From the NCBI GenBank assembly GCA_963716555.1, contig CAVQTJ010000018.1, positions 263,530-327,529 of the forward strand: a stretch of DNA of 64,000 nt, written 5' to 3'. Numbering within the stretch: position 1 is the stretch's first letter; every line of letters begins with the position of its first letter. The notes under the pieces are model-generated. The model searched no databases. It saw only the letters and a list, made by a program, of their open reading frames with translations, and was not told where the DNA came from. Positions 46,373-49,635 of the stretch are shown piece by piece. The position numbers were made by a program, and so were the translations under genes. Source of the stretch: an uncultured bacterium (lineage in GTDB: Bacteria > Chloroflexota > Dormibacteria > Aeolococcales > Aeolococcaceae).

Positions 46373-47623
46373 ATGGGGCAGGCGCCCACCTCCGACTCCG
46401 GCGACCCGGGATTCGTCCCGCCCCCGCCGCCACCACCTCTGCCACCGCTCCCGCCCCGCCGGCTGTGCCGGCGGCGGGACAACCGGGTCTTCGCCGGAGT
46501 GGCCAGCGGCATCGCCGACTACCTCGGCGCCGACCCGGTGTGGATCCGGGTCGCCTTCGTCGCCGCCACCTTCTTCGGAGGCATCGGCATCCTGGCTTAC
46601 CTGGTCGGATGGGTGGCCATGCCGGTCTCCGACCACCCCGGCCCGGTCGGAGGCGGGCCGGCACGGGTCTGGGCACCGCACGCCGATGCCCGCCTGGTGG
46701 TGGGGGTCGGCCTTCTCCTGCTGGCGGCCCTGGTGCTCGCGGGCAGCCTCAGCAGCGAGCACTGGGGGCTGGTCTGGGGAGCGGTGCTGGTCGCCGCCGG
46801 TGTGCTCCTGGTCGTCGAGGCACGCTGGCCCGCGGGGGCCGGACGGCCGGGAGCGCCGCCATATGGCGACTGGACACCTCCGACCGTGCCCGCCATGCCC
46901 CCCTCGTCAGGCTGGAGCGGCACCGCCCAGGCGGCCGCCCTCCCGATCTCCGAGTTCGCCCCCCGCGGGCCCGCCCCGGCGGCGCCCATCATGACGGCGC
47001 GGCGGTTTCCGACAGGTCTGGCTACAACCGCAGCCCTGCTGCTGACCATCGGGATCGCCGCCCTGCTGGACAACCTGGGGCTGGTGACGATCAGTCCGGC
47101 GGCCGGATTCGGGCTCGTGCTCCTGGTGATAGGAGCGGGGCTGGTCGCCGGGTTCTGGCTCGGCCGGTCTTGGTGGCTGATCGCCCTCGGGCTCATCCTG
47201 CTGCCCTTTGCGACGGCCGCCACGGTGATCGACGAGCCCCTGACCGGAGGCACCGGCCAGGTCCGCTATGCGCCGCAGACGGTCTCCGCCATCCGGCCCG
47301 AGTACCACCTGGCCGCCGGGCAGCTCATCGTCGACCTGAGCCAGGTGGAGCTGGGGAGCGCCGCGATCCCCATAACGGTCACCGACGCGGCGGGTCAGGT
47401 GATCGTCATCGTTCCCTCGGATGCCGATGTCCAGGTGACCGCCTCGGCCGGTGCCGGCGAGTTGCGTGTCCTCGGCCATGTCGACGGCGGCTACCAGGTC
47501 AGCAGCCGGGTGAGCTCGCCCGGCACGGGAGCGTCCACCGGCGTCCTGGACATCGACGTGAGCGTTGGCGTGGGCCAGGTGACCGTCGAGCAGGGTTCAC
47601 CCACCTTCGGTTCTGCAAGTTGA
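46373..47623 (+). CDS. PspC-domain membrane protein with C-terminal LiaF/DUF2154-like beta domain
   Basis: NRVFAGVASGIADYLG PspC motif, several TM segments, C-terminal G.L.VDLS beta repeats; AGGAG SD. Confidence 0.85.
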   Translation: MGQAPTSDSGDPGFVPPPPPPPLPPLPPRRLCRRRDNRVFAGVASGIADYLGADPVWIRVAFVAATFFGGIGILAYLVGWVAMPVSDHPGPVGGGPARVWAPHADARLVVGVGLLLLAALVLAGSLSSEHWGLVWGAVLVAAGVLLVVEARWPAGAGRPGAPPYGDWTPPTVPAMPPSSGWSGTAQAAALPISEFAPRGPAPAAPIMTARRFPTGLATTAALLLTIGIAALLDNLGLVTISPAAGFGLVLLVIGAGLVAGFWLGRSWWLIALGLILLPFATAATVIDEPLTGGTGQVRYAPQTVSAIRPEYHLAAGQLIVDLSQVELGSAAIPITVTDAAGQVIVIVPSDADVQVTASAGAGELRVLGHVDGGYQVSSRVSSPGTGASTGVLDIDVSVGVGQVTVEQGSPTFGSAS

Positions 47624-47633
47624 GGGCGGCACG

Positions 47634-47843
47634 ATGACTGGACGAATTCTGGATCCCGTCTCCCTGGTCTTTGGCCTGATCTTCGCCGCCGTGGGAGGCT
47701 TCCTGCTGGTGGGCCAGGCCGACACCCTGGTTCGACTTCGCTGGGCCTGGCCCATCGCCCTGATCGTGATCGCCGGCGCCCTGCTCACCTGGCTGGCCGT
47801 GGATCGATACCGGGGGCGTCCGCTCGACGGCCCACGGGGCTGA
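47634..47843 (+). CDS. Small two-TM membrane protein of the PspC locus
   Basis: LDPVSLVFGLIF and WAWPIALIVIAG segments; directly follows the PspC gene. Confidence 0.75.
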   Translation: MTGRILDPVSLVFGLIFAAVGGFLLVGQADTLVRLRWAWPIALIVIAGALLTWLAVDRYRGRPLDGPRG

Positions 47844-47898
47844 GCGCGGCCTGATTCGATCTCCCAGTGATCGCGGACTCCTGCTATCATCGCCGCCA

Positions 47899-47982
47899 AT
47901 GTTCGCGATCGCGTCGCGCTTCTACTTTTCCTTTGAGTACGCCTCGCCGGCCGCCAGGCCGGTGCGGGGTGCTGCCGAGTAG
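47899..47982 (+). CDS. Phe/Tyr-rich leader peptide (27 aa) of the DAHP synthase-chorismate mutase gene
   Basis: MFAIASRFYFSFEYASPAARPVRGAAE; TGcTATCAT extended -10 ends 8 nt upstream of the ATG. Confidence 0.75.
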   Translation: MFAIASRFYFSFEYASPAARPVRGAAE

Positions 47983-48070
47983 GTAGACCCGCGCCGAGGT
48001 CCGGGCGGCCAGGAGGCCGGCCCGGATCACCGCGAACCGGAGCCCGGCCCTCACCACACTGGAGGCTCCG

Positions 48071-49195
48071 ATGCTGACCGACCTGCTGAAGCCCACCCTG
48101 TCGTCGCCTGAGCGCCGTCGCGTCGCCATCGACGACGTGGTCTTCGGCGGTCCGGCAGTGCCGGTCATCGCCGGGCCATGTGCGGTCGAGCCCGACTACG
48201 TCAGCCACGCCCTGGCCATGCGCGACGCCGGTGCTTCGCTGCTGAGGGCCAGCATCTTCAAGCCGCGCACCCGTCCCGACGCCTTCCAGGGAATGGGGGA
48301 GGCGGGGCTCGAGCTGGTGGAGCGCGCGCGCGCGCTGACCGGAAAACCCATCCTGGTCGAACCCCTGTCGGTGGAGCATGTCGAGATGCTCAGCGGTCGG
48401 GTGGACGCGTTCATGATCGGCGCGCGCTCGATGCAGAACACACCGTTGCTGCGCGCCGCCGGCCGCTCCGGTCTTCCGGTCGTGCTCAAGCGCGGAATGG
48501 CCGCCACCTATGACGAATGGCTGGCCGCGGCCGAGTACGTTCTTGCCGAGGACAACCCTCGGGTGATCCTCTGCGAGCGGGGCATCCGCACCTTCGAGAC
48601 CGCCACCCGCAACACCCTGGATGTGTCGGCGGTGCCGGTGCTGCGAGAGCGCACTCCGCTGCCGGTGATCGTCGATCCCAGCCACGCGGCCGGCCGCGCC
48701 GACTGGGTGCCCGCGCTGGCCCTCGCCGCGGTTGCCGCTGGTGCCGACGGGCTGCTCATCGAATCGCACCCGGTCCCCGCCGAGTCCTGGAGCGACGCCG
48801 CCCAGGCGATCACCCCCTCAACCCTCGAGGCGATCATCGCCGGGGCGGACGTGCTGGCGCCGATGCTGCGCGGGCATCAGGCGACCGAGCTGTCTGAGCA
48901 TCGGCGGATCATTGATTCGCTCGATCTCGCCCTCGGAGCTGTGCTGCAGAGCCGGGCCGGTGCGGTGGATGCGGTCCAGCGTGACAAGCGCCGCAGTGGT
49001 CTTCCGGTCCGTGACCCTGCGCGCGAGAGGGACGTCATCACTCATGTGGCTTCGCGGGTGCCGAGGCTCTCCGCCGACTCGGTCGCCCGGGTGATGACGG
49101 CGATCATGGATGGCTGCGTCGAGGCGGCCGGTCGTTCGGCTGCGGCGGAGGCCGAGGCGGCGGAGGCTGGGGCGGGGGCGGTCCGAAGCTCGTGA
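48071..49195 (+). CDS. aroF: Type I-beta DAHP synthase fused to a C-terminal AroQ chorismate mutase domain
   Basis: IAGPCAVE, FKPRT, IGARSMQN, LKRG, CERGIRTFE and DPSHA motifs; C-terminal R..ID..D...R....K...RDPARE. Confidence 0.9.
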   Translation: MLTDLLKPTLSSPERRRVAIDDVVFGGPAVPVIAGPCAVEPDYVSHALAMRDAGASLLRASIFKPRTRPDAFQGMGEAGLELVERARALTGKPILVEPLSVEHVEMLSGRVDAFMIGARSMQNTPLLRAAGRSGLPVVLKRGMAATYDEWLAAAEYVLAEDNPRVILCERGIRTFETATRNTLDVSAVPVLRERTPLPVIVDPSHAAGRADWVPALALAAVAAGADGLLIESHPVPAESWSDAAQAITPSTLEAIIAGADVLAPMLRGHQATELSEHRRIIDSLDLALGAVLQSRAGAVDAVQRDKRRSGLPVRDPARERDVITHVASRVPRLSADSVARVMTAIMDGCVEAAGRSAAAEAEAAEAGAGAVRSS

Positions 49196-49635
49196 CCGCC
49201 GGCGTCATCGGTCGCGGCGAGGGCAGCGCGCGCTACACCGCCCGGGGCAGCGTGATGCTGTTCAAGGCGCTGGCCGAGCAGGATGGCGGCGACCTTTCGC
49301 TGATGGAGCGCACCCTGCCCGCCGGCGGGCGCCGGCCGCCCGCGCACCGGCATGTGGATACCACGGAGGCCTATTTCGTGCTGGATGGGAGGGTCGCCGT
49401 CATGGTCGAGGCGGAGGAGTTGACGCTGGGGCCGGAGGGTTTTGTGCTGGTGCCTCGAGGCACGGCCCACACCTTCGGCAATGCAGGTGATGAGGAGGCT
49501 CGGCTGCTGGTGATCCACGCGCCCGCCATGGATCGCTACTTCGCCGCGCTGCACGATCTGTGGAATCGTGGTCGGGCTCCATCTCCGGATGAGGAGCGGG
49601 CCCTGATGGCGCGCTTCGGGATGGAGGTGGTCTGA
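49192..49635 (+). CDS. Cupin domain protein
   Basis: PPAHRH..TEAYFVLDG and VPRGTAHTFGN motifs; start overlaps the upstream stop. Confidence 0.88.
   Translation: MTAGVIGRGEGSARYTARGSVMLFKALAEQDGGDLSLMERTLPAGGRRPPAHRHVDTTEAYFVLDGRVAVMVEAEELTLGPEGFVLVPRGTAHTFGNAGDEEARLLVIHAPAMDRYFAALHDLWNRGRAPSPDEERALMARFGMEVV

Follow-up and report, generated by a model that had tools for sequence, protein, structure and literature searches.

A conserved phenylalanine- and tyrosine-rich leader upstream of a DAHP synthase-chorismate mutase gene in Dormibacterota: a probable attenuator with a proposed translational output

A stretch of 64,000 nucleotides from an uncultured bacterium of the Dormibacteria (GTDB lineage Chloroflexota; Dormibacteria; Aeolococcales; Aeolococcaceae; GenBank assembly GCA_963716555.1, contig CAVQTJ010000018.1, positions 263,530 to 327,529 of the forward strand), referred to here as the window, carries a gene for a 3-deoxy-D-arabino-heptulosonate 7-phosphate (DAHP) synthase fused to a chorismate mutase, preceded by a small open reading frame (ORF) rich in phenylalanine and tyrosine codons. 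The locus raises two questions: whether this small ORF belongs to an attenuator that responds to the two amino acids, and, if so, whether the attenuator acts on transcription or on translation of the enzyme gene. We argue that an aromatic leader-peptide attenuator is very probable, and we lean, with moderate confidence, toward a specific scheme read from predicted folds, in which the Shine-Dalgarno (SD) sequence of the enzyme gene would be occluded or freed through a relay between a GC-rich hairpin, P3, and an SD mimic. The enzyme gene (48071-49195; all features given in window coordinates lie on the plus strand) encodes a 374-residue type I-beta DAHP synthase with a C-terminal AroQ-type chorismate mutase (DAHPS-CM), as judged by matches to Pfam PF00793 (DAHP_synth_1, 6.5e-60) and PF01817 (CM_2, 1.2e-12), to NCBIfam TIGR01361 (3.3e-90) and to PDB entry 1vs1 (4.9e-77). 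By pathway logic DAHPS-CM makes prephenate, the precursor of both Phe and Tyr. Its ATG start codon (48071-48073) follows an SD sequence, GGAGG, at 48061-48065.

Upstream of the enzyme gene, an extended -10 element (TGCTATCAT, 47882-47890) ends 8 nt 5' of the ATG of an unannotated ORF (47899-47982; 27 codons and a TAG stop) with the predicted peptide MFAIASRFYFSFEYASPAARPVRGAAE; the 8-nt spacer between the element and the ATG at 47899, CGCCGCCA, contains no SD. Phe or Tyr occupies 6 of the 27 residues, five aromatics fall within the best seven-residue window, and the aromatic density is the highest among the 316 small ATG ORFs of the window. The putative sensor codons, F8 Y9 F10 S11 F12 E13 Y14 (TTC TAC TTT TCC TTT GAG TAC, 47920-47940), have a G+C content of 33% in a window averaging 70%, a value as low as that being found in only 42 of its 63,979 21-nt windows. 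The original prediction for this locus, made from the letters alone, had pointed to the extended -10 element, the 27-codon ORF and the AT-rich patch, and all three are present in the sequence where it placed them. Of 39 distinct relatives, 36 have TGnTAnnnT beginning 15-19 nt (mostly 17) 5' of the leader ATG; the remaining three have TACGAT instead, two of them with TTGACA upstream. Conservation spans the whole 190-nt leader, and the DNA 5' of the -10 element is not conserved. Because the -10 element lies 8 nt from the ATG and no SD is present, the leader mRNA is probably leaderless, with transcription starting at the leader ATG or no more than 2 nt from it, so that the earlier description of the ORF as near-leaderless is probably correct.

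Close relatives of the enzyme gene come from metagenome-assembled genomes (MAGs) labelled Candidatus Dormibacterota or Dormibacteria, mostly from peat, and more distant ones from Chloroflexi or Limnocylindria. Among related genomes, an F/Y/W-rich ORF of 20-28 codons is found 141-197 nt before the enzyme start in all 20 fused orthologues with enough upstream DNA (one further locus is too short upstream). A scan of genome contigs, in which 28 of 30 loci were examined (L053 and L059 begin inside the gene), finds the leader ORF in all 27 relatives of at least 57% identity with upstream DNA, and not at a 36%-identical Oligoflexia locus. The same ORF is present in 43 of the 47 metagenome loci where a start could be set, a number that leaves aside L111, L116 and L122, where no SD or start could be set, and four loci with too little upstream DNA; the four of the 47 without a leader (L107, L108, L119 and L121) encode unfused enzymes, 56-60% identical, each directly behind another gene. 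Removal of duplicates leaves 59 distinct leaders, their ORFs likewise of 20-28 codons and 141-197 nt from the enzyme start, which fall into four subgroups: A, containing the window's own leader, with 34 members, B with 15, C with 4 and D with 6. Two of the rows (L009 and L016) are from unpublished genomes (G028 and G005), L009 and the public locus L052 having identical leaders.

The start, frame and stop of the leader ORF are kept in all 59 sequences. The peptide varies between subgroups (RFYFYFEY, RFYFARPA, HYAYFAFT and WFTFTGPA), the aromatic cluster, its frame and its position are constant, and aromatic codons are the sole peptide feature common to all four. The 34 close relatives have 4-6 aromatics in the best seven-residue window, with synonymous variation between TTT and TTC and between TAC and TAT. 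Its conservation in 59 distinct sequences makes the leader ORF clearly more than chance; the original prediction was to fall if close relatives had no F/Y-rich upstream ORF, and the ORF is there. The family corresponds to no catalogued leader that we could identify: cmscan of positions 47000-49000 with E values up to 10 returned no match to Phe_leader, Trp_leader or other Rfam leader families and four chance-level hits to unrelated families. Subgroup D consists of related leaders before unfused DAHP synthases of 262-271 residues (loci L055-L057, L109, L110 and L114), from soil MAGs and metagenome contigs, L055-L057 being labelled Chloroflexi or Limnocylindria. These leaders have 21 codons, for example MGRWRAWFTFTGPARGRHGSS, and two of them carry a TTGACA/TACGAT promoter. 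Since a leader of this kind also stands before unfused DAHP synthases, the comparison indicates that the leader family either predates the chorismate mutase fusion or has passed from one form of the gene to another.

What could such an ORF control? Folded alone, the leader reaches -98.8 kcal/mol (z -3.1) in a minimum-energy fold with the SD paired, which we call OFF. Two helices, a1 (47901-47906 with 48032-48037) and a2 (47907-47918 with 47990-48001), sequester the 5' end of the leader in this fold, the F/Y codons (47922-47943) pair with region 2 (47967-47986), which is the 3' end of the leader ORF including its stop codon, and a small hairpin, P2 (47945-47952 with 47957-47964), lies inside the ORF. 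Beyond them stands P3 (47998-48010 with 48015-48028; loop AGGA; -25.5 kcal/mol), and the sequence 3' of it, ACCGCGAACCGG, has no U-tract. The loop of P3 together with the first stem bases reads AGGAGG in the window; most relatives have GAGAGG or GAGGAGG there, and to judge by these letters it is an SD mimic. In the predicted fold, P3 keeps both of its arms from pairing with the anti-SD strand, which belongs to the last hairpin, P4 (48038-48070). P4 sequesters the SD; its form in the window is CGGAGCC(CGG) with (CUG)..GGCUCCG, and its family-conserved core is CGG.CCUC (48045-48052) with GAGG..CCG (48062-48070), in which CCUC is 48049-48052 and GAGG is 48062-48065. The 7-bp helix of the original prediction, CGGAGCC (48038-48044) with GGCTCCG (48064-48070), has 7 of 7 pairs and is part of the minimum-energy fold, but it is a lineage-specific extension of P4, its two central pairs each being kept in only 6 of 21 close relatives. 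The broader claim behind it, that the SD of the enzyme gene is paired, extends to the family: predicted folds pair the SD or start codon in 59 of 59 leaders, and at least three of the five SD bases are paired in each, with a sequestering strand that differs between subgroups.

The OFF structure is 98.7% paired across the 34 subgroup A sequences, against 29-43% when the partners are slid. In helix a1, 98.5% of cells are paired and there is one compensatory change, from CG to UA in L047; one pair of P2 (columns 54:72) is AU in 24 sequences, GC in 6 and GU in 3. Helix a1 begins right behind the 5'-terminal AU of the leader and includes the G of the start codon, and its partner strand lies 3' of P3. 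If the model is right on this point, the folded transcript may block further rounds of leader translation, and the decision may be made once per transcript.

A second fold, which we call ON, is mutually exclusive with OFF, and both are conserved, with one helix set overlapping the sensor codons. Its first element is a long alternative hairpin (47947-47968 with 47988-48013; duplex -39.9 kcal/mol), whose 5' strand takes in the strands of P2 and which captures the 5' arm of P3. Folds of transcript prefixes give it as the best fold before the P3 3' arm exists when a ribosome footprint is placed on F8, F12 or Y14, and about 85-92% of its cells are paired in the 34 relatives. The second element is an anti-sequestor hairpin between GAGGCCGGCCCGG (48013-48025) and CCGGAGCCCGGCCCUC (48037-48052; -22.7 kcal/mol), which includes pairing of the GAGG of the SD mimic with the anti-SD CCUC; these GAGG:CCUC pairs are kept in 30-34 of 34 relatives, and the ON set as a whole is 90.3% paired in subgroup A. 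The original prediction had proposed another competitor, 47996-48006 with 48042-48052. It does form 10 of 11 pairs at -21.4 kcal/mol, with the opening cost of the ribosome binding site (RBS) in the window falling to 5.2 kcal/mol, but it is less general; as a switch it has no link to the ribosome, and the better-conserved anti-sequestor is the other arm of P3 with the AGGAGG loop. Its underlying idea of competing, exclusive helices fared better, such helices being conserved and showing compensatory changes in a diverged subgroup.

That subgroup is B, where the RNAalifold consensus of 13 sequences is itself the ON set: a leader strand binds the P3 5' arm, a leader strand binds the strand that follows the stop, and the P3 3' arm binds the inner part of the SD hairpin. 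Pairing reaches 92.8% in the ON helices, with five pairs changed on both sides and a covariation of 0.204, which none of 500 shuffles reaches, and the OFF helices are 93.2% paired, also with five pairs changed on both sides and a covariation of 0.161, reached by 3 of 500 shuffles; slid-partner controls are 29-46% paired for ON and OFF alike. Compensatory changes are present in helices I and II, the subgroup B homologues of the alternative hairpin. Column 54 in the leader has two alternative partners, columns 65 and 110, and covaries with each; column 110 in its turn covaries with its other partner, column 133. Helix III joins the P3 3' arm to the inner part of the SD hairpin. Among 15 subgroup B sequences one of its pairs is CG in 7 and UA in 6, and a second is UA in 8, UG in 5 and CG in 2; the helix again wins the consensus fold of the 15 subgroup B 3' domains.

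Opening costs of the RBS were computed with parts of P3 masked for the 28 leaders in which P3 was cleanly detected, 11 of the 39 being skipped. The median cost is 12.2 kcal/mol for the intact leader (window 9.9), 5.6 with the P3 5' arm masked (window 5.8), 12.9 with all of P3 masked (window 10.1) and 9.6 with the P3 3' arm masked (window 5.2). Masking the 5' arm gives a lower cost than masking all of P3 by more than 2 kcal/mol in 27 of the 28 leaders.

The scheme that we propose would work as follows. When Phe-tRNA and Tyr-tRNA are plentiful, the ribosome would traverse the 27 codons and depart, and the RNA would adopt the OFF fold: the 5' end of the leader and the F/Y codons would pair with the 3' end of the leader and its flank (a1, a2, the pairing of F/Y codons with region 2, and P2), the GC-rich P3 would form, and the anti-SD CCUC strand would hold the SD in P4. 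Under a shortage of Phe or Tyr, a ribosome stalled on F8-Y14 would cover a2 and the F/Y codons, and 47947-47968 and 47988-48001 would be freed to form the one long alternative hairpin, which would also take the P3 5' arm. The released P3 3' arm and the AGGAGG loop could then pair with the anti-SD strand at 48037-48052, and the SD and start codon would open. The sequences and computed folds show the ORF and its conservation, the spacing of the promoter, two exclusive and conserved folds, the missing U-tracts and an effect on access to the RBS; that the ribosome stalls, that the strands fold in this order, that translation is the output and that Phe and Tyr set it is what we infer.

Several results weigh against this scheme, the first concerning the SD hairpin itself. 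Opening the RBS costs 9.9 kcal/mol in the window and 9.7 +/- 3.1 when the upstream sequence is shuffled, 10 of 20 shuffles reaching the real value, so the SD pairing of the window taken alone is not beyond chance. The family as a whole has a median of 11.7 where shuffled sequence gives 8.7, and only 16 of 39 leaders beat 19 of their 20 shuffles. In two diverged leaders the RBS costs about 10 kcal/mol to open even in the ON fold, and covariation within subgroup A is thin, with 3-5 pairs that are mostly from single lineages. One could suppose that nothing is regulated here, the ORF being a chance, vestigial or small-protein gene in a constitutively structured GC-rich 5' untranslated region, where RBS occlusion this large arises by chance. 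We consider this extremely improbable, given a 190-nt leader that is conserved when the DNA 5' of its -10 element is not, compensatory changes in two exclusive folds, and the link to a Phe/Tyr pathway gene.

The remaining difficulties concern the stalled ribosome. When the whole leader is folded at equilibrium with a ribosome mask over its first aromatic codon, its last one or its stop codon, most of the 39 leaders keep their SD pairing essentially unchanged. Without a ribosome the ON fold of the window is 10.1 kcal/mol less stable than the best OFF-like fold; with matched footprints the gap is 4.0 (F8), 8.9 (Y9), 6.8 (F10), 6.4 (F12) and 2.5 (Y14) kcal/mol, and 1.2 kcal/mol at F8 with a longer mask. 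The automatic comparison of ON and OFF is unreliable, P3 being mis-detected in many leaders, and only the values for the window are used here. In this energy model a stall shifts the balance between ON and OFF by orders of magnitude and is not predicted to flip it, the OFF-like fold being still favoured by 2.5-8.9 kcal/mol in the matched series, and therefore the relay would need kinetic trapping or an error in the model. P3 is moreover predicted to win by about 10 kcal/mol from the synthesis of its 3' arm until the anti-SD strand is made. The share of the P3 5' arm paired upstream in transcript prefixes of subgroup A is 0.80 with and without the ribosome, a measure that does not discriminate because the detected arm includes the a2 partner strand.

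The modest equilibrium effect of the stalled ribosome would suit a different trigger: a real RNA switch set by a protein, a small RNA or a ligand, in which translation of the ORF is incidental. In favour of this reading, the structure is extensive, and its good conservation is not limited to the F/Y codons. We nonetheless regard this as very unlikely, since the aromatic codons are kept, with synonymous changes, across four otherwise differing subgroups, the start, frame and stop of the ORF are preserved throughout, Rfam gives no match, and the F/Y codons lie directly 5' of the switching strands.

If a ribosome in the leader ORF is the trigger, the second question is whether it acts on transcription or on translation. 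No U-tract follows any hairpin in the 59 leaders: the longest U run between leader stop and SD is at most 2 in 55 of them, 3 in three and 4 in one, and never exceeds 2 in subgroup A. A terminator scan of the region finds no intrinsic terminator after the leader ORF, as the original prediction had noted for this locus; the one terminator-like hit (47904-47918) is false, lying inside the leader ORF with the F/Y codon run as its 'tail'. Because no U-tract is found after any hairpin, we favour attenuation by SD occlusion and infer that the leader controls DAHPS-CM translationally rather than transcriptionally. This inference is itself tempered by a further result that weighs against it, in that sites with a hairpin and a U-tract are not enriched in window positions 1-60000 (15 found, about 13.5 expected from shuffled sequence). 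The lineage may rely little on canonical intrinsic terminators, and for lack of that enrichment missing U-tracts are weaker evidence here than they would be in E. coli.

Classical transcription attenuation would take P3 as the terminator, the alternative hairpin as the antiterminator and the 5' leader fold as the anti-antiterminator, with the SD hairpin incidental or a second layer. The three-state topology matches the textbook scheme exactly; the alternative hairpin is predicted to last only until the P3 3' arm has been made, a lifetime that fits a short decision during transcription; the aroR-aroF leader of Corynebacterium glutamicum is described as transcriptional (PMC11802643); and termination may work differently in this genome, where U-tract terminators show no enrichment. 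We nevertheless hold transcription attenuation to be unlikely, though less so than the two explanations above, in view of the absence of a U-tract after P3 in any of the 59 leaders and of the fact that it would leave roleless both the conserved, covarying pairing of the P3 3' arm with the SD hairpin and the SD-mimic loop. Mycobacterial RNA polymerase, too, reportedly needs a U-tract.

How does the leader compare with known systems? The nearest by description is aroR of C. glutamicum, a leader peptide with Phe-Tyr-Phe that precedes aroF, a DAHP synthase gene, where, in the sections of the two reports used here (PMC4046766; PMC11802643), ribosome stalling at the Phe-Tyr-Phe codons raises expression through transcription attenuation in response to Phe and not to Tyr. 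The two share the F-Y-F motif in a short leader ORF and the class of gene, and aroR too comes from a high-GC lineage, in its case of Gram-positive type; the likeness seen here is one of description. The Dormibacterota leader differs from aroR, as far as those sections describe it, in having no U-tract terminator, in its SD-sequestering hairpin, in the fusion of the enzyme to chorismate mutase and in its phylum. The original prediction knew of no dual Phe and Tyr translational attenuator described for this gene arrangement; given what those reports describe for aroR-aroF (PMC11802643; PMC4046766), the novelty is confined to the translational output and the lineage.

Two actinobacterial systems act on translation. 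For the mycobacterial polycysteine leaderless short ORFs such as Ms5788A, the part of the preprint used here (bioRxiv 10.1101/834739) shows translational control in which Cys codons pair with the SD. The present leader resembles that account of Ms5788A in its (here predicted) leaderless sensor ORF, its very stable leader and the blocked SD of a downstream biosynthetic gene, and differs from it in amino acid and phylum and in that the SD is paired with 48038-48052 rather than with the sensor codons, whose own partner is 47967-47986, so that the signal would reach the SD through two further partner exchanges, first the alternative hairpin and then the P3 3' arm with the SD mimic. In the LEU element upstream of leuA, as presented in the text consulted (PMC1262725), Leu codons pair directly with the SD within a pseudoknot; a leader ORF with a run of end-product codons and SD pairing in place of a terminator are common to both, but in the Dormibacterota leader the sensor codons do not themselves pair with the SD. 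For the Phe or Tyr genes of Actinobacteria, the same text records no conserved RNA element (PMC1262725).

Like E. coli pheL-pheA and trpL, the leader has end-product codons in its ORF and exclusive helices that would read the position of the ribosome, but pheL-pheA, trpL and his all end in U-tract terminators. The his leader has more than four segments, and the six-segment chain here resembles it in that respect. In ermC and cat attenuation a ribosome stalled in the leader ORF opens a hairpin hiding the SD of the next gene, as proposed here, but those stalls are drug-induced and depend on the nascent peptide, and here the stall would come from a lack of charged tRNA. The leader may be, tentatively and a little short of the confidence that we place in SD occlusion itself, a distinct design: a six-segment relay driven by a leaderless Phe/Tyr mini-ORF with two partner exchanges, the second of which would bring an SD mimic to the anti-SD strand. 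A translational Phe/Tyr leader on a DAHP synthase was not found in the open-access literature searched, and nothing relevant was found there for Dormibacterota, the literature joining 'Dormibacter' and 'leader peptide' being concerned with secondary metabolites.

The surroundings of the gene show what else the leader might govern. An ORF for a 147-residue cupin-domain protein (49192-49635; PF07883, 1.1e-17) has a GTG start that overlaps the DAHPS-CM stop codon; it is probably co-translated with DAHPS-CM, under the same leader. On the other side, a 69-residue hydrophobic ORF without a Pfam match (47634-47843) ends 56 nt 5' of the leader ATG. The same genome encodes a second DAHP synthase (contig C1:26201-26902, L061; relatives at loci L022-L030), 48-56% identical and unfused, which is longer at its N terminus by about 70-90 residues (MIIVMK.../VLILMS...), possibly a regulatory addition. 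The F/Y leader is absent before this paralogue in its own genome and in nine relatives. Because the extended paralogue has no leader, control of the first shikimate step seems split between the enzymes, one having an extra N-terminal domain and the other an RNA leader.

Elsewhere in the genome, a strict scan for a -10 motif followed by a small ORF returned 19 ORFs, among which only the DAHPS-CM leader is aromatic-rich, and no convincing leader was found upstream of three chorismate-binding, two prephenate dehydratase and two LeuA genes, most of which sit within operons. Two chorismate-binding (TrpE-like) genes (contigs C15:630-1391 and C19:341535-342257) have identical 330-nt upstream sequences, which may reflect a duplicated stretch or assembly redundancy in the MAG.

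The leader family has 59 distinct members, is uncatalogued and has no Rfam model, and it brings with it a small ORF that had not been annotated. Should the relay hold, it would be the first cis-regulatory RNA worked out for Dormibacterota, and an aromatic addition to the few amino-acid attenuators that act on translation, namely the mycobacterial Cys short ORFs and the LEU element. Its compact SD-mimic design could serve again in high-GC hosts, as a translational sensor that responds to Phe/Tyr. The relay would also mean that very GC-rich lineages in which U-tract terminators are few have remade the classical attenuator so that it acts on translation, and it would show how an uncultured phylum, widespread in soil and peat, controls the entry into aromatic amino acid synthesis.

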